Below the pieces are notes generated by a model. It was not told where the DNA came from, searched no databases, and saw only the letters and a program-made list of their open reading frames with translations. 64,000 bases of DNA from Squalus acanthias (lineage: Eukaryota). Numbering within the stretch: the stretch's first letter is position 1; each line of letters opens with the position of its first letter. The stretch is from assembly GCA_030390025.1 (NCBI GenBank), contig CM059432.1, positions 10,478,001 through 10,542,000 of the forward strand. Direction: 5' to 3'. Below, one piece after another: positions 17,586 through 51,387 of this stretch. A program made the translations under genes and the position numbers.

Positions 17586-17805
17586 TGGACATGATGCGGA
17601 GATGCCGGTGTTGGACTGGGGTGGACAAATGTGAGAAGTCGCACAACACCAAGTTATAGTCCAACAGCTTTATTTGAAATCACAAGCTTTCGGAGCGCTG
17701 CTCCTTCGTCAGACTTCACCTGATGAAGGAGCAGCGCTCCGAAAGCTTGTGATTTCAAATAAAGCTGTTGGACTATAACCTGGTGTTGTGCGACTTCTCA
17801 CATTT
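17586..17805. mobile_element. Non-coding Penelope-derived hairpin element
   Basis: 86-bp inverted arms at 17627-17712 and 17720-17805 with a 7-nt spacer and an asymmetric tail shared with 22060-22093. TSD TTTCTTCATAAAG at 17573-85 and 17803-15. Confidence 0.9.
17716..17752 (+). ncRNA. Minimal type I hammerhead ribozyme motif
   Basis: TCAC-CTGATGA-A-GGAGC agc GCTCC-GAAA-GCTT-GTGA: both core boxes present, helix II 5 bp, helix I TCAC/GTGA. Confidence 0.82.
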
Positions 17806-20508
17806 CTTCATAAAGACAACCCTTTCATCTCCGGAATCAACCTCGTGAACCTTCTCTGAACTGCCTCCAATGCAAGTATATCCTTCCTTAAATAAGGAGA
17901 CCAAAACTGTACGCAGTACTCCAGGTGTGGTCTCACCAACGCCCTGTACAGTTGTAACAGGACTTCCCTACTTTTATACTCCATTCCCTTTGCAATAAAG
18001 GCCAACACTCCATTTGCCTTCCTAATTACTTGCTGTACCTGCATGCTAACTTTTTGTGATTCATGTAAAAGGACCCCCAGATCCCTTTGTACCTCAGCAT
18101 TCTGTAATCTCTCCCCATTTAATTAATAATTTGCTTTTTTATTTTTCCTACCAAAGTGGATAACCTCGCATTTTCCCACATTATACTCCATCTGCCAGAT
18201 TTTTGCCCACTCACTTAGCCTATCTATATCCCTTTGGATATTCTTTGTGTCCTCCACACAATTTGCTTTCCCACCTATCTTTGTATCATCAGCAAATTTG
18301 GCTATCCGAGTCATTAGTATAGATTGTAAATAGTTGAGGCCCCAGCACTGATCCCTGTGGCACCCCACTAGTTGGTTTGCCAACCTGAAAATGACCCATT
18401 AATCCCGACTCTCTGTTTTCTGTTAGTTAGCCAATCCTCTATCCATGCTAATATATTACACCCAACCCCGTGAGCTCTTATCTTGTGTAGTAACCTTTTA
18501 TGTGGCACCTTATCGAATGCCTTCTGGAAATCCAAATACACGATATCTACTGGTTCCTCTTTATCCACCCTACTCATTACATCCTCAAAGAACTCCAGCA
18601 AATTTGTCAAACATGATTTCTCTTTCATAAAACCATGCTGACTCTGTTTGACTATATTATGATTTTCTAAATGTCCTGCTATCACTTCCTTAATGATGGA
18701 CGCTATCATTTTCCCAACGACAGATGTTAGGCTAACTGGTCGATAGTTGCCTGCTTTCTGTCTCCCTCCTTTCTTAAATAGGGGCGTTACATTTACGGTT
18801 TTCCAGTCCGTTGGGACCTCTCCAGAATCCAGGGAATTTTGGTAGATTACAACCAATGCATCCACTATCTCTGCAGCCACCTCTTTTAAGACCCTAGGAT
18901 GCAGGCCATCGGGTCCAGGGGACTTGTCCACCTTTAGTCCCATTAGTTTGCCTAGTACTTTCTCTCTAGTGATAGTGATTGTTTTAAGTTCCCCCTCTCC
19001 CCCCCCCCCCCGGCCCAATAACCCCTTGATTATCCATTATTGGGATGCTTTTAGTGTCTTCTACCATGAAGACAGATACAAAATATTTGTTCAAAGTCTC
19101 TGCCATTTCCCTGTTTCCCATTATTAATTCCCCAGTCCCATCCTCTAAGGGACCAGCATTTACTTTAGCTACTCTCTTCCCTTTTATATACCTGTAGAAG
19201 CTCTTACTGTCTGTTTTTATATTTCTTACTAGCTTACTCTCAGAAGCTATCTTCTCTCTCTTTATCATTTTTTTAGTCGTCCTTTGCTGGTTTAATACAT
19301 GGTTCGGTGTCAGGTTTTGTCTGGTAACACTCCCATGCAGCGCCTTGGGACATTTTACTATGTTAAAGGTGCTATATAAATACAAGTTGTTGTTGTTGTT
19401 ACTGTGTAGAATGGCTAGTAATATCTCGCTTGGAGGTGGGAGAGATGAGATGGTAGCGTTATATATGTGGGAAAGAGAACGTGGTTCTGTTTTCCCTACA
19501 TTACAATAACAGTGACTACATTTATAAAGTATTCCATTGGCTACAAATCACTTTGGGACGACCGGAGGTCATGAAAGGTGCTTTGGAATGCAAGTTCCTT
19601 CTCCTTTATGAGCACAGAAAACAAAAATTATTCAGTTATCACCATCCTCTTCGAACTTAATCAGTCACAAGAGTCTTTACCATATTCATCATATTAACTT
19701 CACTTAGCAATCATTTAAATGTAGGTCCTCCTCTCCTATTGGCTTGACTTGCCTTGAAGTAATACTCTGAGTTCACATCGATAATGTTTAATATTTTATT
19801 TATCTCAATGTGGGTCTACCTTAAACTTCTCCCCCCTAGACTATAACCTTCTTTAATCTTTTCTCCCAACTCGTCCCTTGGGATCATTCCTGCGCTTCTC
19901 TCTATCCTCGCCAGCGTAACTATCCAAAGAGCCGGCACAGGCACAGTGGGCCGAATGGCCTCCTTCTGTGCTGTAAGATTCTATCCTCAACAACGTCTGC
20001 TCGCCCCCTTTCGAAGAGTGATTGACCAAAGCTGTAAATCATACCCCAGTGTGGTCTAAACGGTCTCCATTTGGACCTGACTTGGACTGAATATTAACAT
20101 TTTCCCCATCTGTATTATTAGCTTCAGAGAATTGAAATCTGAAGCTTCGGGGGCCAGTGACCAGGGGTTGCTGCATGTGTTTTTGGTTAATATGTACACA
20201 GCTCTAGCTTCCTTCACTTTGCAGTAATGCATTCAGGGAAGCTCCCACATCTGACGTTGTTGTTAATCTCATAGAACGATACTGCACAGAAGGAGGCCAT
20301 TCAGCCCGTCGTGCCTGTGCCGGCTCTTTGAAAGAGCCGTCCAATTTGTCCCGCTCCCCCCCCCCACCCCACCCCCTGCTCTTTCCCCCATAACCCCGCA
20401 AATTTCTCCCTCTTCAAGTATTTAGCTATATCTGATAGAACCACCACACTCCATGTAAAATGAGAAGTCGCACAACACCAGGTTATAGTCCAACAGATTT
20501 ATTTAATT

Positions 20509-20547
20509 TTACAAGCTTTCGAAGCAGTTCGCTCCTTCGTCAGGTAA
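20509..20547 (-). ncRNA. Minimal hammerhead ribozyme motif (left arm)
   Basis: Reverse complement of 21969-22007. Confidence 0.8.
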
Positions 20548-20757
20548 GTTAGCAATGAGAGAATCTCCCAGAATTCACAATTTAAACCCAGACAAATTCT
20601 ATTCACATTATTCCCTACAACAAAGAGCACAGCCAAGACAATGAGATGTGTCCCAGTGGGTACAACGTGTCAAACCACCTGCTGGCTGCATATCCTGTCA
20701 ATTTGTGTTCTTGTGTTTAAAAAAAAAACACCTGGGAAGACCGGCCATGATGTCAAG

Positions 20758-21257
20758 TCACGTTCTGTATCGTGACATGAACCCGATATCACGATTGAGG
20801 CCATCCTCATGAGTGGGGAACTTGGCTATCAGTTTCTGCTCTATGATTTTGCGCTGTCGTGTATCTCGAAGGCCGCCTTGGAGAACGCTTACCCGCAGAT
20901 CCGAGGCTGAATGCCCCTGGCTGCTGAAGTGTTCCCCGACTGGGAGGCAACCCTCCTGCCTGGCGATTGTTGCGCGGTGTCCGTTCATACGTTGTCTCAG
21001 TGTCTGCATGGTCTCGCCGATGTACCATGCTCTGGAGCATCCTTTACTGCAACGTATCAGGTAGACAACGTTGGCCGAGTCACATGAGTATGTACCGTGT
21101 ACCTGGTGGGTAGTGTCCTCACGTGTAATGATGGTATCTGTGTCCATGATTTGGCATGTCTTGCAGAGGTTGCTGTGGCAGGGTTGTGTGGTGTCTTGGT
21201 TGCTGTTCTCCTGAAAGATGGGTAATCTGCTGCGAACGATGGTACTTTTGAGGTTAG
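20758..21257 (-). CDS. Penelope GIY-YIG endonuclease, 5'-truncated ORF (left arm)
   Basis: Mirror of 21259-21758: NVVYLIRC..C...YIGET...LRQRMNGHR...E...GLN. Confidence 0.85.
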
Positions 21258-21758
21258 CCTAACCTCAAAAGTACCATCGTTCGCAGCAGATTACCCATCT
21301 TTCAGGAGAACAGCAACCAAGACACCACACAACCCTGCCACGGCAACCTCTGCAAGACATGCCAAATCATGGACACAGATACCATCATTACACGTGAGGA
21401 CACTACCCACCAGGTACACAGTACATACTCATGTGACTCGGCCAACGTTGTCTACCTGATACGTTGCAGTAAAGGATGCTCCAGAGCATGGTACATCGGC
21501 GAGACCATGCAGACACTGAGACAACGTATGAACGGACACCGCGCAACAATCGCCAGGCAGGAGGGTTGCCTCCCAGTCGGGGAACACTTCAGCAGCCAGG
21601 GACATTCAGCCTCGGATCTGCGGGTAAGCGTTCTCCAAGGCGGCCTTCGAGATACACGACAGCGCAAAATCATAGAGCAGAAACTGATAGCCAAGTTCCC
21701 CACTCATGAGGATGGCCTCAATCGCGATATCGGGTTCATGTCACGATACAGAACGTGA
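21258..21758 (+). CDS. Penelope linker plus GIY-YIG endonuclease, 5'-truncated ORF (right arm)
   Basis: Frame is open from the centre: PNLKSTIVRS...PCHGNLCKTCQI...NVVYLIRCSKGC...YIGET...RMNGHR...VGEHF...GLN, typical of the PLE endonuclease with Cys/His motifs. Confidence 0.88.
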   Translation, partial: PNLKSTIVRSRLPIFQENSNQDTTQPCHGNLCKTCQIMDTDTIITREDTTHQVHSTYSCDSANVVYLIRCSKGCSRAWYIGETMQTLRQRMNGHRATIARQEGCLPVGEHFSSQGHSASDLRVSVLQGGLRDTRQRKIIEQKLIAKFPTHEDGLNRDIGFMSRYRT

Positions 21759-21968
21759 CTTGACATCATGGCCGGTCTTCCCAGGTGTTTTTTTTTTAAA
21801 CACAAGAACACAAATTGACAGGATATGCAGCCAGCAGGTGGTTTGACACGTTGGACCCCCTGGGACACATCTCATTGTCTTGGCTGTGCTCTTTGTTGTA
21901 GGGAATAATGTGAATAGAATTTGTCTAGGTTTAAATTGTGAATTCTGGGAGATTCTCTCATTGCTAAC

Positions 21969-22007
21969 TTACCTGACGAAGGAGCGAACTGCTTCGAAAG
22001 CTTGTAA
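21969..22007 (+). ncRNA. Minimal hammerhead ribozyme motif in the PLE 3' terminal repeat
   Basis: TTAC-CTGACGA-A-GGAGC gaact GCTTC-GAAA-GCTT-GTAA. Helix I TTAC/GTAA covaries with TCAC/GTGA in other copies. AATAAA follows. Confidence 0.83.
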
Positions 22008-22509
22008 AATTAAATAAATCTGTTGGACTATAACCTGGTGTTGTGCGACTTCTCATTTTTGTCCACCCCAGTCCAACGCCGGCATCTCCACATCATGTAA
22101 AATGAGTTAGACCGGTGACTATCGTTCGCTTTTCAAAATGCATTCTGTCTGCTCAATTCACACCTCGGGGCCAAAAACCCCAAGTGTCTTTGGATCTGTT
22201 TGCGATGCTAGAGTAATTGGGAACCCTCATTAGATTTAGTGGCACAGACCTGGGAATTAGATTCCATTGATACGACAGCAATAAACACCCGCCTGTACCT
22301 GAGGCATCAGCAAAATTCCTCTCAGGGTTTCTTCCTGAATACTCCGTTGAATGGAATTACTACTGTTTCTGGAACACCTAGGACGTTTCACTGACATGGT
22401 ACAGTCAGAACGCACAGGTCACCAATAAGAGGTCAAAGTGACTCACGTTTTATTCACGTTGACTTTGTGGTTAAATTGCGATTTTCTCATTAGTTTGTAT
22501 TAAAAAAAA

Positions 22510-22963
22510 AAGAACCCTTGCATTTCTATAGCACCTTTCACAAGCTCCCAAAGCGCTTTACAGCCGATGAAGTACTTCTTTGAAGTGTAGTCACTGTTGT
22601 AATGTAGGAAACGCGGCAGCCAATTTGCGCACAGCAAGCTCTCACAAACAGCAATGTGGATAATGACCAGATAATCTGGTTTTTTAGTGATGTTGGTTGA
22701 GGGACAAATATTGGCCAGGACACTGGGGAGAACTCCCCTGCTCTTCTTCGAAACAGTGCCACGGGATCTGTTACATCCACCTGAGAGGACAGACGGGACC
22801 TCGGTTTAACGCCTCACCCGAAAGACGACAGTGCAGCACTCCCTCAGCACTGCACTGGAGTGCCAGCCTGGATTTTTGCAATCAAGTCGCTGGAGCGGGA
22901 CTTGAACCCACAAATGTTCTGGACTCAGAGGCGAGGGTGCTACCCACTGAGTCACGGCTGACA
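22510..22963 (-). mobile_element. Full-length Deu-domain SINE
   Basis: tRNA head to L2-like tail. Confidence 0.9.
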
Positions 22964-23209
22964 CGGCCATTTAATGCAACGTTGTTTATTCCATAACTGG
23001 ATTAATGAACGTTTAGGCATTTACGTGGGTCAAGTAGCTTGTTAGCTGCTCGGGAAGTGATGGAGGAATCATTACTACAGGTGTGCCGCGGTGGACCTTT
23101 TTGAATCCGTGCAAAAAAAAAAAAAACTCATTCTCAGGAATTGCACATTTCAAAACTGCACGTTTCATCGATAAAAACAGGAGATGCTGGAAAACACTCA
23201 GCCTTGCCT

Positions 23210-23526
23210 TGCCTTTATTCGCCGAGGCATAGAACATAAGAGCAGGGAGGTTATGCTTGAACTGTATAAAACACTAGTTAGGCCACAGCTAGAATACTGC
23301 GTGCAGTTCTGGTCATCACATTACAGGAAAGACATGATTGCACTAGAGGGGGTACAGAAGAGATTTACGAGGATGTTGCCGGGACTGGAGAATTTTAGCT
23401 AGGAGGAAAGATTGGATAGGCTGGGGTTGTTTTCTTTGGAACAGAGGAGGCTGAGGGGAAGATTTAATTGAGGTGTGTAAAGTTATGCGGGGCCTGGATA
23501 GAGTGGATAGGAAGGAACTGTTTCTC
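23210..23526 (+). mobile_element. CR1 LINE fragment
   Basis: ORF 23184-23402 LVRPQLEYCVQFWS. Confidence 0.9.
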
Positions 23527-24822
23527 TGTAAGACGTTTAAATTCACCCTTGTCCTTTAACCCGTTCAACAGTTTCCAAAGTCCAGACCCGTCGAACAGAC
23601 AACATAAAGCCCAAGGATTCAGGAATAAATTCCTTTATTTTAAAATCAGCAAGAGGTTACAAGTAAGCTCACACAAAACCGTTACATATAATACTCCCGA
23701 TTATATCTAAGCAGACGCAGATTTATTCCCTTACTTTAGGATCAAGCGATAATAAGCCAACACTACATACGTACTAACACCAGCGAGTGGTGGGTTCGGC
23801 GATAACTAGACGTACGACTTTAACTGGCAACTGACCAACTGACTGCAGCCCCGAGCGTCTTTTTCCAGCATCTTTTATACCTTAAAATTTGGCAAACCTC
23901 CCACAGCATACGTGTTCCCAATTGTGTGAATAATTGTCAATAGTTGTTTTTCTCTTCTTCTTATCAGTGGTCAATCAATCAGTCAGTGGGCCGCAAGGCC
24001 GATTACATTCCAAAGTCTGAGATTGTTCCTGTTTTCGCAACGCCTTAACAGTTCAATAGCTTCTTCTCCACAGAACTCTGAAGGTCTGTTTCCCTTATAT
24101 GTTAAAAGGCAGCTGGCAGCCTTTACATCTTATAACCGTAGCAGACTGTTCTACATTCCAGCAGAAAGTCTCTGTTCCTGTCCAAGTAGATCCCAGGGGT
24201 GCGGACCACCCCACCAGCCGTAGGAGATCCCAACTCCAACCGCCAGCCCACACCTCCCCCACTCCCAGCCCACACCCTCCCCCACTCCCAGCACCAGCCC
24301 ACACCTCCCCCACTCCCAGCCCACACCTCCCCCACCCCCAGCCCACACCCTCCCCCACTCCCAGCCCACACCCTCCCCCACTCCCAGCCCACACCTCCCC
24401 CACTCCCAGCACCAGCCCACACCCTCCCCCACTCCCAGCCCACACCCTCCCCCACTCCCAGCACCGGCCCACACCTCCCCCACTCCCAGCCCACACCTCC
24501 CCCACTCCCAGCACCAGCCCACACCTCCCCCACTCCCAGCCCACACCTCCCCCACTCCCAGCACCGGCCCACACCTCCCCCACTCCCAGCCCACACCTCC
24601 CCCACTCCCAGCACCAGCCCACACTTCCTTTAATGTGTCTAAAATTACAAAGCAGGTCTGACATATCCACCGAATTTTATCAACCGAGGAAAGCGTTGCC
24701 GTAGCAAACCAATCAGAAGAAACATTTCCAAAATATCAATATCTGATATACTTTATTTTCTTTTAATTAAATAAATCAAATTGAATTTTAATTTTAATTT
24801 TCTGTTTGTGACCCATTACTAC
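23527..24822 (-). mobile_element. Possible solo LTR containing a minisatellite
   Basis: Truncates a CR1 abruptly with TGTAAG and has a candidate end CTACA. Minus-strand AATAAA (~23633) and TATA-like (~23875) motifs. No TSD seen. Confidence 0.35.
24244..24623. repeat. C-rich minisatellite, 22-29 bp unit CCAGCCCACAC(C)CTCCCCCACTC(CCAGCA)
   Basis: Direct tandem array; it generates the Pro-rich and Gly/Trp-rich ORFs. Confidence 0.97.
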
Positions 24823-25041
24823 ATTGGGTCAGGACTATCTGCGTCACTCCAGCCTTGGTGGAGTGGCAGGAGCTTGACTCAACTTAACTCATTTGGAACC
24901 CTTAACGGAAGTGAATGGCAGTGACAGATTGCTGTGTATTCTGGTTATGGAATGGTTTAGTCACGGTAAAGTGTGATGCAAGACCTTTAACACATTTATG
25001 TGAATTTATGAGACTGTAAAATCCCCTTATCCGTGATATAA

Positions 25042-25362
25042 AGAAAGAAAAAAACGTGCATTTATATAGCGCCTTTCACAACCTCAGGACATCCCAAAGC
25101 ACTTTACAGCCAATAAATTACATTACAGCAGTGACTGCCCTTCAAAAGTAAGAAACACGGCAACCAGATTCGCACACAGCAAGATCCCGTAAACAGCAAC
25201 GAGATAAATGACCAGATAATCTGTTTCTTTTTAAGGTGATGTTGGTTGAGGGCTAAGTATTAGCCAGGACACCAGAAAGAACTCCTGTGTTCTTCCTCGA
25301 ATAATGCCACGGGATCTTTTACATCCACCGAGAGGGAAAGACAGGGCCTCGGTTTAACGTCT
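25042..25362 (-). mobile_element. Deu-domain SINE, diverged
   Basis: Homologous to the other copies. Confidence 0.82.
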
Positions 25363-25364
25363 CC

Positions 25365-27610
25365 CAGAACTCCATCTTTGAATCCCTCCAATCAGGTTAC
25401 CGCCCCGGCCACAGGACGGAAACAGCTCTCATCAAAGTCACAAGTGACATCCTATGTGACTGTGACAGTGGTAAACTATCCTTCCTCGTCCTTCTCGACC
25501 TGTCTGCAGCCTTTGGCACGGTTGACCACACCATCCTCCTCCAACACCTCTCCACTGTCATCCAACTGCACCCGCCTGGTTCCATTCTTATCTATCCAGT
25601 CGTAGCAGCGAATTACCTGCAATGGCTTCTCTTCTCGCCCCTGCACCATTACCCCTTGTGTCCTCCAAGGATCTATCCTTGGCCCCCCTCCTATTTCTCA
25701 CCTACATGCTGCCCCAAGACTGTTCGCAACCTTGATGTCGTATTTGACCCAGAGATGAGCTTCCGACCACATCTCCACATAGAATCATAGAATCATAGAA
25801 AGTTACAGCACGGAAGGAGGCCATTTCGGCCCATCATGTCCGTGTCGGCCAACAAAGAGCTATCCAGCCTAATCCCACTCCCCAGCTCTTGGTCCGTAGC
25901 CCTGCAGGTTACAGCATCCCAAGTGCACATCCAAGTACTTTTTAAATGTGGTTAGGGTTCCTGCCTCTACCACCCTTTCAGACAGTGAGTTCCAGACCCC
26001 CACAACCCTCTGGGTGAAGAAATTTCCCCTCAAATCCCCTCTAAACCTTCCACCAATTACTTTAAATCTGTGCCCCCTGGTTTTTGACCCTTCTGCTAAG
26101 GGAAATAGGTCCTTTCTATCCACTTTATCTAGGCCCCTCATAATTTTATACACCTCAATAAGGTCTCCCCTCAGCCTCCTCTGTTCCAAGGAAAACAGAC
26201 CCAGCCTATCCAGTCTTTGCTCATAGTTAAGATTCTCTACTCCCAGCAACATCCTTGTAAATCTCCTCTGTACCCTCTCTAGTGCAATCACATCTTTCCT
26301 GTAATGTGGTGACCAGAACTGCACGCAGTACTCTAGCTGAGGCCTAACTAGTGTTTTATACAGTTGAAGCATAACCCCCCTGCTCTTGTATTCTATGCCA
26401 CGGCTAATAAAGGCAAGCATTCCGTATGCCTTCTTAACCACCTTATCTACTTGGCCTGCTACCTTCAGGGATCTGTGGACATGCACTCCAAGGTCCCTTT
26501 GTTCCTCTACACTACTCAGTGTCCTACCATTTAATGTGTATTCCCTTTCCTTGTTAGCCCTCCCCAAATGCATTACCTCACACTTTTCCGGATTGAATTC
26601 CATTTGCCACTGTTCTGCCCACCTGACCAATTTATTGATATCTTCCTGCAGTCTACAGCTTCCTTCTTCAGTATCAACCACACAGCCGATTTTAGTATCA
26701 TCTGCAAACTTCTTAATCATACCCCCTATATTCAAGTCTAGATCATTGATATATACCACAAAAAGCAAGGGACCTCGTACTGAGCCCTGCGGAACCCCAC
26801 TGGAAACAGCCTTCCAGTCACAAAAACATCCATCAACCATTACCCTCTACTTCCTGTCTCCGAGCCAGTTTTGAATCCAACTTGACACTTTGCCCTGGAT
26901 CCCATGGGCTTTTAACTTCGTGACCAGTCTGCCATGTGGAACCTTATCAAAAGCCTTGCTAAAGTCCATATACACTACATCAAACACACTACCCTCATCT
27001 ACCCTCCTTGTTACCTCCTCAACGTATTTCCACCTCCGTAACATAGCCTGTCTCCGCCCCTTCCTCAGCTCATCCGCTGCTGAAACCCTCATCCATGCCT
27101 TCATTACCTCTAGACCTGACTAGACAAATGCTTCCCTGCCCAGCCTCCCATCTTCCACCCTCCATAAACTTGAGGTCATCCAAAACTCTGCTGCCCGTAT
27201 CCTAACTCGCACCAAGTCCTGTTCACCCATCGCCCCTGTGCTCGCAGATCTACATTGGCTCTTGGTTAAGCAACACTTTGATTTTAAAATTCTAAATTGT
27301 TTTCAAATCCCTCCATGACCTCGCCCCTCCACAACCCTCCGAGATAGCTGCGCGCCTTCAATTCTGGCGTCTTGCTCATCCACGATTTTAATTGCTTCAC
27401 CAGTGGTGGCCGTGCCTTCAGCTGCCGAGGCCCTAAGCTCTGGAATTCCCTCCCTAAACCTCTCCGCCTCTCTCTCCTCCTTTCAGACGCTCCTTGACCT
27501 CTTTGACCAAGCTTTTGGTCATCTGTCCTAATATCTCCTTTTGTTTGATAATCGCTCCTGTGAAACGCCTTGGGGCATTTTACTCCGTTAAAGGCGCTTC
27601 ACAAGTTGTC
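25365..27610 (+). mobile_element. L2 LINE split by a CR1 (L2 parts ~25365-25778 and 27022-27610)
   Basis: L2 RT motifs (LDLSAAFGTVDHTILL, VLQGSILGP) and AETLIHAFITSR...IQNSAAR, followed by the L2 tail. Confidence 0.85.
25779..27021 (-). mobile_element. Young CR1 LINE with an uninterrupted 323-aa RT C-terminal ORF
   Basis: ORF 25869-26840 GVPQGS..FADD..RDLGV..RPQLEYC..WNSL, with a (TTCTATGA)n tail. Confidence 0.96.
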
Positions 27611-30678: not shown

Positions 30679-31812
30679 GTTTGTCGGAGGAGAACATTCT
30701 GTAGAAATCAATCCGCAGTTGGGCCCAGAACACTGCCCTGAGGAGCTCCTGCAGCGACGTCCTGGGGCGGAAATGGCTGGCTTCGGCATCAAATGGCTGT
30801 GAAGGAGCTGGCACGGCATTGAAACAATAATTGCGTCTGTTGAAGACAGTCAATAGTTGGACACGCTCATTCTCTATACGAAAAGGTACAAAGGAAACAT
30901 TGTGAGCCACGCTGCGCGATGACTAAATCACAGAGTTATTAGATTGTCAGAACGAAGCTTGAAACGTGCAGGAAAAGATAAACTACACTTGGCTTTTTCA
31001 CCGTGTGTGGAGGTTTCCAGGATCAAGGAAATGTTGGAATTGTCAAAATAACCATGAAAATACCAACGGCTTTGAAGGTTGAAATAAAATGCAGAACAGT
31101 GGGCAGCATTTTATAGAGCAGAGGCCATTGAAGGTAACGATAGTAAATGATCAGTCATAATCACTGTTTACAAAGGCCTCAAACTGACAAGAGTAATTTG
31201 CACAGCATGTTACCCCAGCAAACCTATTCCGAGATCGCAAATAACTTCAAGCGAGCGTTGTCGATTCCTTCGGCTGCACGGCCCTGCCAAAGTTTATGAG
31301 GCGTAAAGTATTTTTCAATATTTGCTCTCGACCGGCCTCCAGCAGGCCTTGTACTTGTCAGATTAGCGACACGGGAAGCGCCAGATGGGATGGGACTGGC
31401 ACCGCACAGCGGAGACAGTGAAAAAAAAACCCACCATGTCACAATGATTGCACAGCTGTCCGCCATTAAAATCTTTTACTGCAAATATCAAATGAGCTGG
31501 CGGGTGTCAGAGCCTGGGTTTTAACTCCCGGGTGGGAAAAGCCGGGGTGGGGGGGGGAACTGCCGATCCTCTCGCACGGGAGTCCCGCCCGATTTTAACA
31601 CAGCCGGGCCTCGGTAACATCCCCGCCGACCCCAAAATGGCAGCTGACGGCCCACCCGTGTGGGGAGAGCACAGTGTGTTTGTCGGTTTGTATTATTACA
31701 CGAGGACAAGTCGTACTGGTTGAATTAAATGAGTCCGACCACACCTTCTGCTCTGTACGTTCGCTTGCTGTGAAAATAAAACAGCTTTAACATTTTGCCT
31801 CTGGCCTCCTCC

Positions 31813-31897
31813 CTGAGGAAGGGGCGATCGATAGCTCCGAAAGCTTGTGATTTCAAATAAAACTGTTGGACTATAACCTGGTGTTGTGCGACCTCTC
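31813..31897 (+). mobile_element. Solo Penelope terminal fragment with hammerhead core
   Basis: CTGAGGA-A-GGGGC gatcgata GCTCC-GAAA-GCTT-GTGA followed by ...GTTGGACTATAACCTGGTGTTGTGCGAC. The 5' strand of helix I is missing. Confidence 0.8.
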
Positions 31898-32252
31898 AAT
31901 TTTCTCCTCCTCTGGCCAGCTATTTTTTCTATGTCCACTTTCGAAAAGATTGGAGCGCAAAAGACATGAATTCAGCTTACATCGCGAGGGGGTTAATAGT
32001 GTTGCACCTCTGGGTTGCGCTGTCGTACGGTTAGATATCGGGCAGCATGGGACGCCTCGGGGCGATGCACTGCGTTATAGGGCGCTAGATAAATGCAAGT
32101 TGTTGTTGTTGTAGAGGTTGTTTCCCAATGGCAATCCCTGGCTCCCTCGGCATTGAAACATGACCTTACGTGCAAAGTATTCTGGGACAGCAAGGCTGCT
32201 TGGCGAACACTGAGCCCTTGTTACTGTTCAGATATGCACTGCAAATGACATG

Positions 32253-33150: not shown

Positions 33151-33271
33151 AAGGTGTCCCAGCTCAACTCTCCAACTGACAGCAAATACTCTGCCGAAAA
33201 CTACAAATCGAGTCTATCAACACATCAGATAAGAAAGAGCAGATTGTAACTGAATTGTAACACTTCATGTA

Positions 33272-33650: not shown

Positions 33651-33734
33651 TATTAAATCCAACAGTGTTCTACACAGCGAAGCTACTCTGTCAGAGAAAG
33701 GTTCAAAGGGAAGCAGCACCATCTCTCTGAAATA

Positions 33735-35056: not shown

Positions 35057-37545
35057 TTCTCCTGAATTCCCTTTTGGATTTATTGGTGACTATCTTATAT
35101 TTATGGCCCCTAGTTCTGGTCTCACCCATAGGTGGAAACATCTTCTCTATGTCTACCCTATCAAACCCTTTCAGAATTTTAAAGACCTCTATCAGGTCAC
35201 CTCTCAGCCTTCTCTTTTCTAGAGAAAAGAGCCCCAGACTGTTCAATCTTTCCTGATAGGTATAGCCTCTCAGTTCTGATTGAAGGGATAATTACTAGTC
35301 CTAGTCCCTTTAGGGCTACCCCAGATCAGGCGTATTCCCCAGACGTTCACTTTCAACTAAAGTTTGAGGTAGCCGAATCCTAAAGATGCTTAATTGGGTC
35401 TAAAGGTCTGGACCATCTCTCCCTAAAGGAAAGGAACAACCTGAAAATGTTACCGTCCTCCAGATAGCACTTTTAATAAGTTTAGCTAGACTGTAACCTT
35501 CTGGATATTATGAGGGTCTGGAAAACTCCCCCAGAATTCTGCAACTCCTCACCAAAGAGTGTACAGAGATTGAGTTTGCGAGTTTGATACAGAAGTATTA
35601 TGTGAGACAATTCTAAAAATATACAGATTTATTAAAGAACCTACATGTAATTTACAGTTGGTGAGTCAATCACAGCATTAACAGTTCCAAAAAGAGAAAG
35701 CTTTACAATCTTATTATCAGAGATCCTTATTCTCAAATCTTAACTTTACTACAGTTTTACAGTTCATAAACTTATTCAGGATATCCACCAAAATCAAATA
35801 CAGTACCTTTGATCCCCGAGGTACAAAGAGTTGTAGACTTACAGAGCTGTCTCTGAAGCCGAGAATCGCTTTGCCCCTTTACAGCGAGTCTATTATCCTA
35901 TTCGAGAGTTCAATATTTATACCCTTTTCCAGTGGTATTCCCTTTAAGGTTTTCTGCTGATGTAAGCTAATTATCTCTAATCATTTTTCTGCTGACTTCT
36001 GCAATTCTTACAGTCACCTCAGCTGGTAGCAATACAGAATCATGTCTCTCCTCTAGGTATTCTAAGCTTACCATAAAAAACGGTGTAACAGCAGGTGCAT
36101 TTTATTTGATATCATTTTTACTAAGGCCTTCTGTTTTTGCCTCTTTACGAAGTGTAAATTAGAACACCTTGTACAGGGTGAACCTTTATTTTGTTCCGAA
36201 AGGTTCAGACTGTCGGGAGCCTTTAACCTTCTGTTTCAATAAGGTTATTGATTCAGTGTCAACAACTATCTTATCTCTATAGTCAGAATTCTATCACAGC
36301 TTTAGATTGTTGAGGCTTCCAGATTTCCAAACCCAGTCTGTCATGTTTTAATAAGGCCAGAATTCTTTCATAGAATGGTGTATTTTTCTGAATAGTTTAT
36401 ATGGCTTATTCCTTCACATGATATCATTCTCGTAAATCTTTTTTGCACCTTCTCTAGTGCCTCTATATCTTTTTTGTAATATGGAGACCAGAACTGTTCA
36501 CAGTACTCCAAATGTGGTCTAACCAAGGTTCTATATAAGTTTAACATAACTTCTCTGCTTTTAAATTCTATCCCCCATGAAATGAACCCCAGTGCTTTGT
36601 TTGCTTTTTTATGGCCTTATTAACCTGCGTCGCTACTTTTAATAATTTGTGTATCTGCACCCCCAGATCCCCCTGTTCCTCTACCCCATTTAGACACTAT
36701 CCAAGGAGTGTGTAGCCCCCTTCTTCCTACCAAAATGTACCACCTCACACTTATCTATATTGAAGTTCATTTGCCAATTACACTCCCATTCTTCAAGTTT
36801 ATTCATGTCTTCCTGTATTTTTGTCGCAGTCCTCCTCTGTAATAACTACACCTCCCAATTTGGTGTCAGCTGCAAATTTTGAAATTGTACTTCCAATTCC
36901 TCGAGTCCAAATCGTTTATGTAAATGGTGAACAACAGTGGTCCCAGCACCAATCCTTGTGGAACACCACTTCCCACCTTCTGCCAGTCTGAGTAACAACC
37001 CTTAACCCCCTACTCTCTGTTTTCTGTTTTGTAGCCAGCTTGCTATCCATTCTGCTACTTGTCCCCTGCCCCCACAGGTTCTGACCTTAGTCATGAGTCT
37101 ACTATGCAGTACCTTATCACAGGCCTTTTGGAAATCCAAATATGTTATGTCTACTACAGTACCCTTATCTACCCTTTCTGTTACTTCTCCAAAGAATTCA
37201 GTAAGATTGGTCAAGCACAACCAGCCCTTTTGAAATCTGTGCTGAGTACTCTTTATTATAATTTCAGTTTCTAGATGTTTTTCTATTACATCTTTGAGTA
37301 AAGGATTCCATTATCTTTCTTATAACCCCCATCTATTCCTCATCTTAGTCACTTCGATCTATTTGTGCTGATTGTATACCTAGCCCCTATTTATTTTGAG
37401 TGAGGGAATGTGCCCCTCATTTTATTGAGAATGAGGGTAAATTTGCCTCCATTTGTGCTGAGGTCATGTGTGTGTGTGTGTTAAGCTAACTGGTCTATAG
37501 TTCCCTGGATTTGTTCTGGCTCCCTTTTTAAATGTAGGGGTACAT
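35057..37545 (-). mobile_element. Older CR1 LINE interrupted by an LTR-like insert and a 150-bp insert
   Basis: ORFs 34992-35246, 37002-37220 (YLDFQKACDKV) and the FKKGARTNPGNYRPVSLT motif at ~37480-37540. Confidence 0.9.
35281..36418. mobile_element. Probable solo LTR (Gypsy-like) inserted in CR1
   Basis: TG...CA termini with short inverted ends (TGAAGGGATAA / TTATTCCTTCACA). 4-bp TSD TGAT (35277-80, 36419-22). The CR1 sequence resumes across it. Confidence 0.7.
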
Positions 37546-37782
37546 AGAGGCATACATACCCTCCCAATAAATAAATAAATAAATAAATAGAGGGGTACAT
37601 ACCCTCCCGATAAATAAATAAATAAATAAATAGAGGGGTACATACCCTCCCGATAAATAAATAAATAGAGGGGTACATACCCTCCCGATAAATAAATAAA
37701 TAGAGGGGGTACATACCCTCCCGATAAATAAATAAATAGAGGGGTACATACAGTCACGATAAATAAATAGAAGGGTACATAA
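37540..37782. repeat. Tandem repeat (AAAT)n-AGAGGGGTACATACCCTCCCG, ~6 units
   Basis: Direct array with a hairpin-capable core. Confidence 0.92.
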
Positions 37783-39835: not shown

Positions 39836-39866
<31 letters not shown>

Positions 39867-40430
39867 CCCACCCCCCATCCCATTTTTGCATCCAGGTCCA
39901 CTCACATCAAAATCAAGCCACGCAGGTCCTCTCTCACCAACAGTCTCTGAGACTAGGCAGTCAGCAATGATGACATCATCAGAGGCGACTTTCAGACTGA
40001 AAACACTAATTAGTTCATGGGTTCCCACATGCTGGAACTCAATTGCCCAATTAAGTGAAAATTGCATCATTCATCCACATTAATCTGGAGTCGGGGGGGA
40101 ACCACGAAATGCGGATGACACGACCCCAACCCGACCCCAAGACAAAATCCAGCCCAGTCTGAGCTGCTGCTGCTCATTTTGCATCCAGGTCCTCTCACAG
40201 CAAAGGCCAGGCAGTGTCTGAAAGCCTTCAATGCAGCAGCAATGATGACATCATCAGAGGCGACTTTCAGACTGAAACCACTAATTGGTTCATGGGTTCC
40301 CACATGCTGGAACTCAATTGCCCAATTAAGTGAAAATTGCATCAATGTCCCACATCCAATTGCAGACGGGTGGATAACAGGAAATGCGGATGACACGACC
40401 CCAACCTGCCCCAGTATCAAAATCCAGCCC
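38882..40430. mobile_element. Harbinger-type foldback MITE, family D (outer copy)
   Basis: TIRs GGGCTGGATTTT / AAAATCCAGCCC with TSD ATA (38879-81, 40431-33), inside a GA-rich tract. Confidence 0.88.
39371..40155. mobile_element. Family D MITE nested in its own family member
   Basis: Own TIR pair GGGCTGGATTTTG / CAAAATCCAGCCC. Its left and right halves duplicate the outer halves. Confidence 0.85.
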
Positions 40431-40433
40431 ATA

Positions 40434-40657
40434 GAGTAAGAAAGCAAGAGAGTGAGAAAGAAAAAGAGTGAGAGAGAGAGAGTGTGAGAGAGAACGAGAG
40501 TGAGATAAAGAGTGAGAGAGAGAGAAAAAGAGAGAGAGAAAAAGAGAGCGGAGAAGAGAGAGAAAGAGGGAGAGAGAGGGAGAAAGAGAGAAAGAGGGAG
40601 GGGGAAAGAGGGAGAGAGAAAGAGGAAGGGAGAGAGAGGGGGAAAGAGAGAAAGAAA
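40434..40657. repeat. GA-rich low-complexity microsatellite
   Basis: Purine-rich (GA)n-like tract, continuing 38825-38880. Confidence 0.9.
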
Positions 40658-41639
40658 GATCTTTTACCTCACCTGAGAAAGCAGACGGGGCCTCGGTTTA
40701 AAGTCTCATCCAAAAGATGAGCAGTCAGTGGATTTCAACTCCCGTTCCACCCAGGTTCCCCTGGAAGGAGGGAGTTAAAATTCCCCCTTCGGAGTGAATA
40801 TTTTATGCTTTTTCTGATTAAGCTGGATAACTCGCACATGATTATTTTGCATTCAAAATTGTTACATGTCCTCTCTTCATTTTGCCATCTTTTCAATAGT
40901 TCATTAGGATGTCATTAATGCAGAAGAGTGATGATGCATTTCAAACATTTTAAAGCGTTATGAATATTGTCGGGGCTTTGAACCAAATCTACTTCAACAT
41001 AAGTGCATTTTGGCTTCAAATGGAAATGCAATCAGTCCTGTGCCTGGGTCTGTTTTCTGTGCTGTGTAGTGTCTCTTTGACAGAGTTCCCTATATGTCTC
41101 CAAGTGACTCAGCCCAATAATAAATCCACCAGCCACTGGCAAGCTGGATTTCTGTCAGCTTGACACAGAATATGCTTCCGTTGAACGTTTCATTTACAAT
41201 TTTTGGTTACATCAAGGCCTTTGCAATTTGGCCACAAGCTGGTTAGAACTGAAGCACCTTGAGGGGACCAATTTTAATTGCCCCCTCCCCCACCTGTTGG
41301 CAGTCTGGAAATGTCACTTACCGGCCTGTTTAGGTGGCGGGCCTGATCGCCGCCATCTTGGAAAGGGTCCTGAGATGGGCGGATGCAGCACCTGCCTGTT
41401 TCAAACGGCAGGCTGCTTGTAATATGCAAATCGGCATCCTAAACCGTCCATAGGACCCCCGATTGCAATTTGCTGCCTGCTGAGCCACAAAGGCAAGTCT
41501 GAGCGTAGAGATCAAGGCTCTCCTCTACACCCATGGATCGTGCCACTTCTGTGGTATCTCAGAGTGCAGATGAACACAGGTATAACGATGTACCTGCATT
41601 GTGCATCTACATCATAGAGCCCACTTGGTGGGGGGGGGG

Positions 41640-42240
41640 AGTCAAAAACTAGGGGCCATAAGCATAAGATAGTCACCCCAAAATCCAGTAAGGCATTCAG
41701 GAGAAACTTCTTTTACCCAGAGAGCAGTGAGAATGTGGAACTCGCTACCACAGGGGGCAGTTGAGGCGAATAAAATAGATGCATTTAAGAGGAAGCTGAT
41801 TAAGTACATGAGGGAGAAAGGAATAGAAGGTTATGCTGGTAGGGTGCAATACCACCTAGAAGGACAAGGGCAGCAGGCGCATGGGAACACCACCACCTCC
41901 AAGTTCCCCTCCAAGTCACACACCATCCTGACTTGGAAGTATATCGGCCGATCCTTCATCGTCGCTGGGTCAAAATCCTGGAACACCCTCCCTAACAGCA
42001 CTGTGGGAGAACCTTCACCACACGGACTGCAGCGGTTCAAGAAGGCGGCCCACCACCACCTTCTCAAGGGCAATTAGGGATGGGCAATAAATGCTGGCCT
42101 TGCCAGCGACGCCCGCAGCCTGTGAATAAATAAAATAAACAAAAATATGAAATAGGGTGAGAGGAGACTCGTGTGGAGCATAAACACCGGCATAGACCAG
42201 TTGGGCCGAATGGGCTGTTTCTGCACTGTAAATTCTATGT
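41640..42240 (+). mobile_element. CR1 3' end with a nested 3' end of a second LINE family (41853-42135)
   Basis: CR1 motif MWNSLPQG. The insert (RSFIVAGSKSWNTLP...GGGCAATAAATGCTGGCC) matches 48765-49215. Confidence 0.85.
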
Positions 42241-42824
42241 AAAGCTATGTAGAGCCCCAATGAACGGCACAAAAGTCCCAGGAAATTATGACATAAGTGA
42301 CTTATGCCATTACTCACACCCCGCCATAATTTCCTGTGACTTTTGTGCCACTCTGCCGTTACCCTCGCTGAAACATTATAACTCCCCCATTAAAATCAAC
42401 GGCCATCGCAAATGTGCTGAATAAAAGCTACTTTGATCGCCAGTGCCACCTAGATCATTAGAGAATTGCGCCGGTGGGCTTCTCTAACTTTAGTGAATAC
42501 TGCTACCATTCATTCAAACGCGTACACCCAGGTGTCGTTTGGGTCTTTAGACTTTCTAAGTTGTTTAAATTGCGTGAAACCTGCATCGCCATCAAAACAA
42601 ACCATTGCCTTGGGGGGGATCGGGAGCCCACTCAATCCCTGCTCACAGCTGAGGCGCACAATATTCCGTCACTCATTCTTTTCCCTCTCTGTGAGCAAAT
42701 CTTCCAATTATTCTTGATTTAGACATTAAAAATTAACGCTCGCAACACCAGCCAGGCAGCATCAGAAACTAGTGGATAGAGATTGGACTTGGGTGAGAGC
42801 ACTAAACGGGTGGTATCATTGCAT

Positions 42825-43235
42825 TACATAGGATTACATGGGATATACGGCACAGAAACAGGCCATTCGGCCCAACCAGGCCATACCGGCGTTTATGCTC
42901 CACACGAGCCTCCTCCCGTCTTTCCTCATCTAAATCTATCAGCATAACCCTCTATTCCCTTCTCCCTGATATGCTTGTCCAGCCTCCCCTTAAATGCATC
43001 TATACTATTCGCTTCAACCACTCCCTGTGGTAGCGAGTTCCACATTCTCAGCACTCTCTGGGTAAAGAAGTTTCTTCTGAATTCCCTATTGGATTTCTTG
43101 GTGACTATCTTATATTGATGGCCTCTAGTTTTGCTCTTCCCCACAAGTGGAAACATTCTCTCTCTATCCACTCTATCAAAACCTTTCATAATTTTAAAGA
43201 CCTCTATTAGGTCACCCCTCAGCCTTCTTTTTTCG
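42825..43235 (-). mobile_element. CR1 LINE 3' end
   Basis: ORF 42926-43282. Confidence 0.92.
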
Positions 43236-43727
43236 AAAGTATCACCTCGACCGCTGTTCATACTTACCCCCCCATTCCCCACCGATATTCTGATCTATTG
43301 AAGACAAAGGAACTGAATATCATGCGGGGAGTATAACAGGCAGCAGACACCATACCGCCTGTTCTGCGCAACCGTCCAAGACCAATTTCTACCGCCAGAA
43401 CATTAAAAACGAATGGAAGTTCCCACTCAGGTCAATGCCCGCTTACGTTAACGATTAATCTCAATACATCCTTTGGCGCCACGACCGCTTTGTAGCAGCG
43501 GAGGAATAAAGTACTAAACGCAAATATAACCAAACCTCTCGTTCTGCAAGAAAACTATTGCAAAATACTCAAGCAAAAGAAGACGGTAAAACGGTAGGAA
43601 TTTCCTGGCCACCTTCAGAGATCCTCGTAACCATAATTTTTCCTCAAAGCACAGGTGCCTGAACCCATTGTACAGAATACTTCAAGATTTTGTTTGAAAT
43701 TGACTTATGGGGGAGGGGTGGGGGTGG

Positions 43728-44118
43728 GGGGCAATTTTAACCTAGCCCGTCCGTCGGGAAACTGACGACATCGAGCGCAGCGCTGACTTTACACCCTGCC
43801 CGACGCCCGGGTGGCCCTGGAGATGGAGCACGCGGTGTCCGCCGGCACACTTGAGGCCTTCCGCCACCGGAGGGCGCCGCCGGGACTGGAGTGCATCATC
43901 ACCCCGGCCAATGAAATTTTAATTTAATTTGTTACGGTTTATTTAAAGTTTTATTAGTTACAGTCGTTTTGTTTAATCACCCAAACAAAAGAGTACACCC
44001 TGCCCGATATTACTGTCCGTTGAAGTCAATAGACAGTATCATTGGGCGGGGTATAAAACCGGCGTTGCACCCGATCCAATGGGTTACCCGCCCGGCAAAT
44101 TAGATGAAAATTGCTCCC
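43728..44118. mobile_element. MITE-like element
   Basis: Ends GGGGCAATTTT / AAAATTGCTCCC with imperfect subterminal inverted similarity. Confidence 0.55.
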
Positions 44119-44358
44119 GTTACCCGTTGAACGGAATCTGCTTTTATATTATCGTAAAGGAAGCCGGAGAGGCTGGAGAGGGCACCCTCGCCTCCGCAGA
44201 GACTCACTTAAAAAGAACACTGCAGAAAATGCGTTCATGGTTCAACGCGTGAATACTAAAGCTGGCGGGAGGTGCCGAGATCACCAGACGAAGCCAAGAG
44301 TACGTTGACCTGTGAGTTCTAACTGAGCATGAGGAAGCAACATCTGTCTTTCAGGAAA

Positions 44359-44519
44359 AACAACAGAAAACGCTGGAGAAACCCAGCAGGTCAGGCAGCA
44401 TCCGTGGAGAGAGAAACAGAGAGTTAACGTTTCAGGTCGAAGACTGCTGCCTGGCCTGCTGAGTTTTTCCAGCGTTTTCTGTTGTTATTTCGGATTCCCA
44501 GCATCCGCAGTATTTTGCT
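44359..44519. mobile_element. Hairpin element of a second Penelope-like family with a partial hammerhead
   Basis: 42-bp inverted arms at 44359-44400 and 44445-44486 with an asymmetric 33-nt tail. The spacer reads on the minus strand TCGACCT-GAAA-CGTT. Confidence 0.65.
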
Positions 44520-45052
44520 ATCATATCTGTCTTTTAGGAGTGTGACCAGGGCCAAGGAACAAGCTTTAATCCACTTCAAAGTGGAAGGAACACGACTGCT
44601 ATCAACAGATGAATGGGAAGATTACCGGGCGGGAGATGAAAGGAAGAAACAAATCGCTGATAAGATAAAGGCAGAAGTTGGAGGCTTTAAATTGAATGTC
44701 AAGATAGCATTTAAATGCCAGTTAAATCATATGGTACTGCACCACAGGGGGACAATCCTGGCCTTGGTAGGAGGACAAATGAGTTGTTACTGGGATTAGG
44801 TAACTGAGCTTTGAGGAAAAAGTATGGTTACTAAGAATGTTTATATTGGAAAAAGATGGTTTGAGATACTTAGGTACTGACTGTCTGGTAATCTCCCTCC
44901 ATGCTACTTATAACCACTGAGTTCTGGAGCATCCTGTCTTGGGTTCTTACCCTTACCCTCTCCTTACCCTTATCTCTGCTGGCAGTACAGCCACGGGAGC
45001 ATCCTTGACTTTGGGGGCTCTAGTGTCACAGCAGATGCTCTTAACATTCAAC

Positions 45053-45386
45053 TGTGAGTCAACCTCCTCCCTTGAATGGTTCACAACGACACACTTTGAG
45101 TAAGCGCGAGACACTTGATGTGGAGTATATGGAACAGACTTTATTGATATCTAGTACAGGTGATCGATCTATACTGTACACAGAGAGTGGCTTTCGGTTT
45201 CTGGTTCTATCTTCCAAGCCCTCTGAAGAACTGTTGAAAACTTTACTCCTTTATACATCTTATTTTGTCTATTTCAAAGGTACATGTCACGGATAAGACC
45301 TCATGATATATCTGTTCCTGAATCCTTAGAACACAGTCTATTTACATAAACAGTTGTAGTTGTTTACTTCAAAGATACTTCTCTCA
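45053..45386 (-). mobile_element. Possible short solo LTR
   Basis: TGTGAG...CTCTCA termini and a minus-strand AATAAA (~45140). TSD imperfect. Confidence 0.35.
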
Positions 45387-45432
45387 AACAAGACTTCCTG
45401 ACTTAACTGTTCTTGAATCCTTTGAAGAGTAG

Positions 45433-47106
45433 GGGGGAAAAATTTGTGTTCGCCAGCAACTGCAGTTAACGGCCGCTGGAAATGGCCACAAAGCTAACCA
45501 AGTAAAATTGGTCTGGGGGTGTGCGTGGAGGTAGGTGGTGCACTGCTCACCTTCCATGTTGGTGGCGTTGCTGGAGGGATCCGAGATGAAGTTCCTGCCC
45601 AGGTCCGGCGTTGCAGCCTCTGAAAGCGAAGCTGTAGAGCTCACGAGGAATTGTGCGTAATGAAGAGGTCTGTGAATTAAAGGGGCCATGCACACTGAAG
45701 CAATACAAAATAAAATGCAGTGAATCAAAACATTTTTCAGCCCTTTCTGCCTTTTAAAAAATATCCAACATTTAAAAGAAGTTCCAAATGTGAATATTCA
45801 GCTCTTAAAGCTGAATTACCTTCCTAACCTCAACAAATGGGAAAACTGCCTCAGCACTAACACAAATGGCTCAGCAAGCCAGGGAAGGGGCACCCATGGT
45901 CTCACACGCGGCACTCCAGCTTTGTGCAGGGGGTCAACACTGCAAGAGTGGCCCTCTACCCACAGGGGCCAGGAGGCCGTCCAGAAAGCACGATGTGGGA
46001 GTACATCACTAAGACCGTCACTGCCACCACCTGGCTCCAGTGCCCAAAGAAGCTTCATGACCTCAGACCACTGGTCAAGGTCAATGAATGCATCTTCAAA
46101 AGCCGTCACTTACCAACTGCACCACTAGCCTCACACACTGCTCAATGCACAACCCCCAATCACTCACCTACCAACAATCTGCACCAATGACGAGGCACAT
46201 TCCTAGCCTCACCTCATCCCCTTGGAGGAGACAGTGCAGGCCATTCTTGGCAGGGGCACGGTTGAGCCCTTGGCCAGCAGCGGGGCTGAAAGAATACAAG
46301 ATGCTGGTATCCTCCTACGTTGTCCTCCTCCTGGCATGCACCTCCAGGTTTCCTGCCCTCCAGTCAGCACAACTCCACCCTTGTGCCTTCCTCATTTCAC
46401 ACACCCAAGAAATGCAGCCTGCCCAGCCAGTGGGACCACAGGCGGATGATTCCATCCCGGATATCCTGGCCACAAAGGAGCTGTCTGGGATGCATCCTTC
46501 CATCTGATTCCTCCTCTTCGGCTTCCTCCTCTTCTGTGTCTTCCTCTTCCCTCTGCAAGTGGATGCTGTAAATGTGAAATGACAGCATAAAATGCTGGAA
46601 ATACTCAGTCGGTCAGGCAGCATGTCGACCTGAGACGTGAACTTTGTTTTTCTCTCCACGGATGTTGCGTGACCTGCTGAGTATTCGCAGCATGTTCTGT
46701 CTTCTCAAGGACCGTCATTTACCATCTGAGCCCTTGCAAGCATCCAGCAGCACTCCTACACACTTAAAAAAAAAAATTCACCTGACTTCACCTGACGAAG
46801 GAGCAGCGCTCCGAAAGCTTGTGATTTCAAATTAAACTGTTGGACTATAACCTGGTGTTGTGCGACTTCTCACATTTGTCCACCCCAGTCCAACACCGGC
46901 ATCTCCACATCTTGGTGAAGTTAAGTCGGCGTTGCACGCGGATTGACGTCACAATGCTGCCATTTTTTTTCCAGCAGCGCAAAGGGGGAGAGGAATATGG
47001 CGGCTGTTGTGGGACCCGCCACCAGCTGGCGAAAGCGCAGCGGCCACCATTTTATCGCCATTTCATGGCGCTACGGAGTGTCAGTAAGGAGATAAATTTC
47101 TAGCCT
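45433..47106 (+). mobile_element. Harbinger-derived element, family A, copy 2
   Basis: Reverse-complement homologue of 2045-3696 with probable TSD TAG. Myb/SANT-like remnant in ORF 45924-46190 (MWEYITKTV..TWLQCPKKLHDL). Confidence 0.85.
46784..46910 (+). mobile_element. Solo Penelope terminus with intact hammerhead motif (46788-46824) and tail
   Basis: TCAC-CTGACGA-A-GGAGC agc GCTCC-GAAA-GCTT-GTGA ... GTCCACCCCAGTCCAACACCGGCATCTCCACAT. Absent from copy 1 of the host element. Confidence 0.88.
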
Positions 47107-51363: not shown

Positions 51364-51387
51364 CTGTGAAGAAAAAGACATTTGCAT

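Follow-up and report, generated by a model that had tools for sequence, protein, structure and literature searches.

The window, a 64,000-nucleotide stretch of Squalus acanthias DNA, contains six copies of the motif CUGANGA-A-helix II-GAAA-GCUU, all at the coordinates and on the strands claimed for them in the original prediction. The six motifs amount to only four insertions, however, named A to D (Table 1), and two of these are two-armed and inverted (motifs at 17712(-)/17720(+) and 20543(-)/21973(+)). The core CUGANGA...GAAA...UH is present in all six. In two copies, 17712(-) and 31813(+), 5' truncation at C3 means that helix I cannot form and is absent; the residual pairing comprises two wobble pairs in the former and one pair in the latter. 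A target duplication was also looked for at insertion D (46785..46911) and none was found.

Table 1. Features of insertions A to D in the window (PLE, Penelope-like element, a retrotransposon; pLTR, pseudo-LTR; min-HHR, minimal hammerhead)
Feature	Position	Strand	Description
Insertion A, tail-bearing arm	17593..17712	-	pLTR piece from hammerhead core C3 (helix I 5' strand missing) to ~39-nt PLE tail
Insertion A, tail-less arm	17713..17800	+	complete min-HHR 17716-17752, predicted cut 17748/17749
Insertion A, target duplication	17573-17585 and 17803-17815		13 bp
Insertion B, tail-less arm	20457..21257	-	801 nt, 99% complementary to other arm
Insertion B, contents of tail-less arm	21258-20758; 20547-20509	-	mirror GIY-YIG frame; min-HHR
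Insertion B, 5'-truncated PLE frame	21258..21758	+	166 aa; C-x4-C-x2-C linker and GIY-YIG-type endonuclease (VVY...YIG)
Insertion B, complete min-HHR	21969..22007	+	U-A form of pair 2.3:1.3; predicted cut 22003/22004
Insertion B, PLE tail	22056..22094	+	
Insertion B, target duplication	20452-20464 and 22094-22106		13 bp
Insertion C	31812..31898	+	pLTR piece truncated at core, long loop II, no tail
Insertion C, duplication	31798-31806 and 31909-31917		9 bp
Insertion D	46785..46911	+	solo pLTR piece and tail; complete min-HHR 46788-46824, predicted cut 46820/46821

The assignment of the motifs to PLE minimal type I hammerheads was upheld by the GIY-YIG frame, the tail, the target duplications and the existence of full-length relatives. 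The frame lies immediately 5' of the hammerhead copy at 21969 and is 99% identical to full-length genomic copies, with 150 scored genomic matches at 99-100%. Intact relatives of pLTR-ORF-pLTR structure encode, in a single frame, a reverse transcriptase-endonuclease of 892 aa, and in eight tandem elements the two same-strand motifs are spaced 3026-3046 nt apart. By inspection, the 892-aa frames contain DKG, YIDD, C-x4-C-x2-C (residue 753) and VVY..YIG. Pfam identified RVT_1 in the 892-aa protein (E 2.3e-8) and nothing significant in the 166-aa frame; the Pfam GIY-YIG model matched neither, and a PDB sequence search with the 892-aa protein gave no match at E 0.1. The Atlas neighbours of this protein at 0.98 carry both the reverse transcriptase (RT) and GIY-YIG families. 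Judged by its sequence, the element is likely of Neptune type, a label that rests on the CX2-5CXXC linker present between RT and endonuclease (EN) and that must be read with the knowledge that Nematis shares this linker. Partial tandems, inverted 5'-truncated copies and a tail at a single end, which are features of EN+ PLEs, are all present. Exactly one tail was found in 39 of 40 head-to-head pairs, which matches the two start sites described in PMC11167929. The arms of such pairs do not, as a rule, come from different subfamilies: in 19 of the 40, the two arms match completely where they were compared, and in 4 others all differences lie at CpG sites.

The family is very abundant. The core pattern is matched 76,285 times in the genome, against 24 for the reversed control, and exact pLTR anchors 99,227 times, against 0. 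A sample of 65 motifs was used to assess conservation. In every one, the G10.1-C11.1 pair is present and GCU, at positions 15.2-16.1, directly follows GAAA with no loop III; in 64, an extra A follows A9, between 9 and 10.1. Position 4 is U in 62 and C in 3, while N7 is variable (C29, G25, A10, U1). Together with the rest of the architecture, all four features given for minimal hammerheads in the 2014 paper (PMC4209133) are found. The palindrome proposed to replace helix III was correct in part: AGCU is self-complementary and sits in helix III, but the A and U that flank it in AAGCUU are the core A14 and the cleavage-site U17.

Helix pairing is well preserved. Across the sample, 97.2% of helix cells are paired, a value equalled in 0 of 500 shuffles and falling to 25-47% when the helices are slid. 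The pairing of helix II around a varying loop was borne out, with loops AGC (n=3), GAACU (n=2) and GAUCGAUA (n=1) in the window. Two pairs, one in each of helices I and II, show changes on both sides, and this count was reached by 47 of 500 shuffles. The compensatory change reported for helix I is real and maps to pair 2.3:1.3 (44 C-G, 19 U-A, 2 U-G and 0 C-A among the 65 motifs), but a tree of 28 long copies, computed from non-helix sequence, places it as a single evolutionary change. The fourth pair of helix I, 2.4:1.4, is broken in 10 of the 65 motifs. Conservation does not single out catalysis, as the motif is barely more constant than the pLTR downstream of it.

Quite probably, a young, very abundant PLE, likely of Neptune type, left the six motifs behind in four 5'-truncated insertions as minimal type I hammerheads of its pseudo-LTR ends, and their cutting, after CUU or CUC, is predicted to be slow and to take place only when two copies pair through AGCU. 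This agrees with the earlier view that cleavage is predicted after CUU and that helix III should be formable only between two copies. Within RNA transcribed from a tandem source element, both motifs would share a 4-bp helix III (A15.1-U16.1, G15.2-C16.2), and the element's own protein may well assist this, as for the anole PLE. RNA that is uncut, or re-joined, would be the likely template of new insertions, in line with the 111 of 115 sampled copies that run upstream past the predicted cut. On one target strand, reverse transcription would begin at the end of the tail, and on the other ~39 nt deeper into the element; two such staggered starts would yield inverted pairs carrying a single tail. 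The copies in the window itself are probably inert, since helix I is missing from two of them and, in a read-through transcript, the inverted arms would anneal to each other. For neither of the window copies tried did ViennaRNA give the active form as the lowest-energy dimer; for the copy at 21966-22013, the lowest-energy dimer consisted of a 6-bp AAGCUU duplex without helix I.

A further role for the motif is possible, although doubtful. In the subfamilies with C-G in helix I, a capped RNA would start 7 nt before the core, on an initiator with a TATA box 30-32 nt upstream. The ribozyme would then sit at the mRNA's extreme 5' end as a switch that slowly removes the cap, and the thousands of solo pLTRs would be short tail-to-cap cDNAs with the cap copied as an extra G. 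If true, a vertebrate PLE start site could be read from genome sequence alone. The corresponding prediction for the U-A subfamily, a start at the A 13 nt before C3 and 30 nt past a TATA-like motif, failed: 52 junctions fall at the predicted base (12 with G), against 37 lying a single base upstream and 125 a single base downstream. No AG precedes the 5'-end pile-up, so an intron acceptor there, of the kind found in Drosophila virilis Penelope, was rejected.

Two other explanations accept the motif and differ on what it does. It is fairly unlikely that the motif is kept as a pLTR fold or protein-binding site near the reverse-transcription starts, with U17 lineages that scarcely cleave. This would fit the upstream extension of 111 of 115 sampled copies across the predicted cut (0 of the 115 start at the site and 2 start within 2 nt of it), the competing A14-U17 duplex that U17 makes possible, and the spread of Naiad PLEs without hammerheads. 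It would also fit the anole PLE, for which in vitro insertion was unaffected by core mutants and the cut was not marked by the start or end of any RNA-seq read (PMC11167929); the same hammerhead nevertheless cleaves with the protein present (PMC11167929). Against a mere fold, the upstream DNA of two clades has diverged by ~0.46 changes per column, yet neither shows any variation in the core, G10.1-C11.1 or AGCU, and N7 and loop II vary freely; a purine at position 17 occurs only 82 times genome-wide and no G17 lineage was seen there. That both tandem motifs are cut and the unit-length RNA is circularised as template, so that genomic copies cross the re-joined site, is quite unlikely. Circles were proposed in PMC4209133, and the two motifs are identical in 7 of 8 tandem elements compared and copies of more than unit length exist (L066). 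The two pLTRs of element L068, however, are distinguished by loop II and a 9-nt gap, which is not expected from one circle copied twice, and many short copies terminate just upstream of the motif, which fits a linear RNA with its 5' end there.

The remaining two explanations concern what the motif is. In the original prediction, CUU was regarded as atypical and the motif as possibly a poorly characterised variant. It is very improbable that the motif is a distinct, lineage-specific hammerhead variant whose CUU chemistry is unusual and whose palindromic helix spans 6 bp, even though U17 is the majority state (56 of 65 sampled motifs) and Fig. S3 in PMC4209133 includes no cartilaginous fish. CUU is not an atypical triplet: a tally from the text of that figure gives U17 in 24 of 56 representative minimal hammerheads, and the same GAAA-GCUU occurs in the rotifer Philodina roseola and the turtle Chrysemys picta. 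Here, C17 subfamilies of the same architecture coexist with U17 (16 among the first 100 genomic matches listed; 9 of the 65 sampled motifs). U17 is present in near-identical young copies and in every full-length element retrieved, so decay of CpG after insertion was rejected as its main cause. The chance that the repeat merely resembles the hammerhead consensus is negligible. The Rfam check proposed for the motif did come back negative, with no hammerhead family among 11 covariance-model matches in the window at E up to 10, and a loose core pattern matches the window 17 times, of which 11 are unrelated to the six motifs. Such a coincidence is refuted by the full-length elements, the genome-wide core counts against control, the conservation of the 65 motifs and the shuffle test; the pairing kept in 97% of helix cells, the presence of all four published features and the location of the motif, which as in PLEs described earlier lies in the pLTR immediately ahead of the tail and start codon, also speak against it.

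The motifs are the already described PLE minimal hammerheads, and nothing new as a ribozyme class. Like those in the pLTRs of PLEs (Cervera and de la Pena 2014, PMC4209133), they are of type I with no loop III, a palindromic 15.2-16.2, an extra base between 9 and 10.1, G10.1-C11.1 and a short helix I, and they occur in both pLTRs, in thousands of solo copies and in opposite-strand pairs. They differ in the 5-bp helix II, in their host, a shark, whereas the 40 species listed there include no cartilaginous fish, and in number, as the 76,285 cores exceed the 4,000 of coelacanth and 9,000 of Xenopus. With its intact frames, some 76,000 cores and naturally occurring U17 and C17 lineages, this young family offers a test system for whether, and to what end, PLE hammerheads cleave in vivo. 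Animal non-LTR retrozymes, which are non-coding PLE-derived units with type I hammerheads, were reported in the sole chondrichthyan sampled (bioRxiv 10.64898/2026.07.22.740005); the window copies fall outside the definition of an active retrozyme given there, as they are solo or inverted and not head-to-tail arrays.

Close counterparts are the Neptune-clade EN+ PLEs (Craig et al. 2021, PMC8557442), which likewise combine RT with a C-terminal GIY-YIG and a Zn-finger-like linker, and form partial tandems and inverted 5'-truncated copies with the tail at one end only. Another is PAc, a Poseidon element from Anolis carolinensis (Frangieh et al. 2024, PMC11167929). In contrast to PAc, the protein here carries the C-x4-C-x2-C linker of Neptune and Nematis; the PAc frame begins inside the hammerhead, whereas the start codon here lies past the tail, ~90 nt beyond the predicted cut. 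The two elements share a pLTR hammerhead and a tail of 30-40 nt between two reverse-transcription starts, and in both the uncut RNA is the likely insertion substrate. The two-site priming observed in vitro with the anole element gains support at the genome level from the rule of one tail per inverted pair.

The six minimal hammerhead motifs (min-HHR; CUGANGA-A-helix II-GAAA-GCUU) that had been predicted in the window were all recovered by a scan, each at the position and on the strand claimed. A loose core pattern has 17 matches in the window, and in these six alone the core leads into GCUUG and a common downstream sequence of ~85–125 nt. They belong to four insertions, listed in the table, and two copies, 17712(-) and 31813(+), start at the core without the 5' strand of helix I. 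The motifs are real, were correctly recognised and are of an already known kind; no Rfam hammerhead family was detected anywhere in the window. The copies in the window are probably inert. Insertion A is located inside a broken LINE-like reverse transcriptase fragment, one of many in the window (17235-19547, 25869-26846, 50104-53030 and 58969-59793), which we take to be CR1-like. There are also tandem repeat arrays with units of ~10, 21, 23-28 and 35 bases at 1-1650, 14494-14745, 24180-24670 and 37514-37769.

Hammerhead-bearing insertions in the window
Insertion	Position	Form	Target duplication
A	17593-17800	inverted pair	13 bp
B	20457-22094	inverted pair	13 bp
C	31812-31898	single piece	
D	46785-46911	single piece	

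The link to Penelope-like elements (PLEs) that had been proposed is borne out by an endonuclease frame, by relatives in which an ORF lies between two pseudo-LTRs (pLTRs), and by a reverse transcriptase (RT) match. Both a Cys linker and a VVY...YIG motif occur in the 166-aa frame carried by the arms of insertion B. When this frame was searched against the source genome, there were 54,913 candidates, and the 150 that were scored are all 99-100% identical. pLTR-ORF-pLTR elements are present in twelve stretches taken around the longest frames. One of these PLE loci, L061, has a frame of 892 aa whose ATG is directly behind the ~39-nt tail, and its protein contains DKG, YIDD, C-x4-C-x2-C and the endonuclease motif. 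This protein matches Pfam RVT_1 (E 2.3e-8) and its nearest Atlas clusters carry RT and GIY-YIG families; Pfam GIY-YIG was unmatched by both the 166-aa frame and the 892-aa protein, and a PDB sequence search gave no match. Judged by the C-x4-C-x2-C linker, the element would belong to the Neptune or Nematis clade, as these are described in the portion of PMC8557442 consulted. The motif-to-motif distance is 3026-3046 nt in eight tandem elements. Genome-wide, there are 99,227 exact pLTR anchors (0 in the control), 76,285 hammerhead cores (24 in the control) and 18,600 matches to the subfamily with a short loop II. Two full-length elements, L062 and L065 (G000:C5, 60.60 Mb and 60.13 Mb), share one junction and its flanks, in opposite orientations; a segmental duplication is the likely origin.

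Constraint on the motif was examined in 115 pLTR copies from 65 clusters (contig C1 up to 3.25 Mb), mostly selected by the downstream anchor. Here, 92 copies match the full pattern, 84 have at least 5 of their own bases before C3, and 65 motifs are left once identical motifs within a cluster are merged. Among these, pairs 2.1:1.1, 2.2:1.2 and 10.1:11.1 and the GCU do not vary, pair 2.4:1.4 is broken in 10, N7 is found as all four bases and N17 is either U (56 motifs) or C (9). In the 39 distinct motifs, 97.2% of helix cells are paired, a level reached in 0/500 shuffles and falling to 25-47% when slid. The compensatory change originally seen in helix I holds insofar as pair 2.3:1.3 is C-G in 44 of the 65 motifs, U-A in 19, U-G in 2 and never C-A, but one change suffices on a tree of 28 long copies built from sequence outside the helices. 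A second compensatory change, 10.5:11.5 to U-A, occurs in a small subfamily with C4. This subfamily (CCGACGA, with the U-A ending helix II) was seen at L138:4698-4739(-) and at G000:C1 906684, 1072575 and 2004976. Covariation is thus real but thin, since only two pairs change on both sides (a count reached by 47/500 shuffles of the 39 distinct motifs) and that in helix I did so by one change. A purine-17 pattern has 82 matches genome-wide.

In the short-loop subfamily, 5' junctions rise just before the motif, both genome-wide and at 17713 and 46785 in the window. There are 394 junctions 9 bases before C3 (40 G, 32 A and 28 C among the matches listed, the first 100), 2,040 purine junctions 8 bases before it (87 G and 13 A among the matches listed) and 1,604 junctions 7 bases before it. 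The 5'-end step lies at an A 7 nt before C3, mostly with G ahead. Long copies with a C-G pair at 2.3:1.3 mostly have TATATAT 30-32 nt upstream of this A, which itself falls on a match to the initiator. A copied cap adds a G in other retroelements, and a capped start at this A with the cap copied as G is a possible, if doubtful, source of the short-loop junctions. Against it, 30 junctions were inspected, and of the 24 with G, 7 are templated, overlapping by one base, while several others end in the same partner-arm sequence; in addition, the prediction was not replicated in the U-A subfamily. A search of the PLE literature found no paper describing a capped start with a cap-derived G, and Drosophila Penelope has an internal, TATA-less promoter in the part of PMC2377424 consulted. 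In run X18, from another organism, a single low-depth contig compared with L061 (joint 3003 to 2809) contains a junction that opens with this same 5' end, G-ACTTC.

Of 40 head-to-head neighbours, 39 have the tail on exactly one arm, 1 on neither and 0 on both. Aligning 115 copies to long copies located their 5' ends with an uncertainty of a few bases: 0 started at the predicted cut, 2 lay within 2 nt, 2 further downstream, and 111 extended upstream across it. Insertion templates would then be uncut or re-joined RNA, with a different priming site for each of the two target strands. The two motifs of a tandem transcript would have a 4-bp AGCU helix in common and the predicted cut after position 17 would be slow and likely protein-assisted. 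U17 copies can, in the folding model, form an alternative 6-bp AAGCUU duplex that would tie up A14. Because this duplex was the lowest-energy dimer for 1/2 copies folded, U17 lineages may be slower cutters than C17 lineages. Loop II length is unequal between the arms of 4/40 inverted pairs (G000:C1 1085495/1085626, 1932335/1932453, 2306826/2306924 and 3084582/3084678), two of which have a private downstream variant in common; the mismatch stems from two pLTRs within the same source element or from loop slippage.

A search for openly readable papers on shark PLE hammerheads found none on the present family; the portion of a 2026 preprint consulted (bioRxiv 10.64898/2026.07.22.740005) describes hammerhead retrozymes in one chondrichthyan. 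For the anole PLE, the sections of Frangieh et al. 2024 (PMC11167929) drawn on here report a tail bounded by two reverse-transcription start sites, two target strands that are both cut and extended, hammerhead cleavage only with protein present, and core mutants that leave insertion unaffected. Cervera and de la Pena 2014 (PMC4209133), in the parts used, define min-HHRs as lacking loop III and name as further features an additional base following position 9, the pair G10.1-C11.1 and a palindromic 15.2-16.2; these motifs sit in pLTRs, opposite-strand pairs are noted, and a monomer did not cleave while dimers did so at a low level. Cartilaginous fish are absent from the species listed in their Fig. 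S3. CUU had been regarded as an atypical variant. By our own count U17 occurs in 24/56 rows of that figure, and GAAA-GCUU is present in Philodina roseola, a rotifer, and Chrysemys picta, a turtle; CUU is therefore no new variant relative to these published rows.
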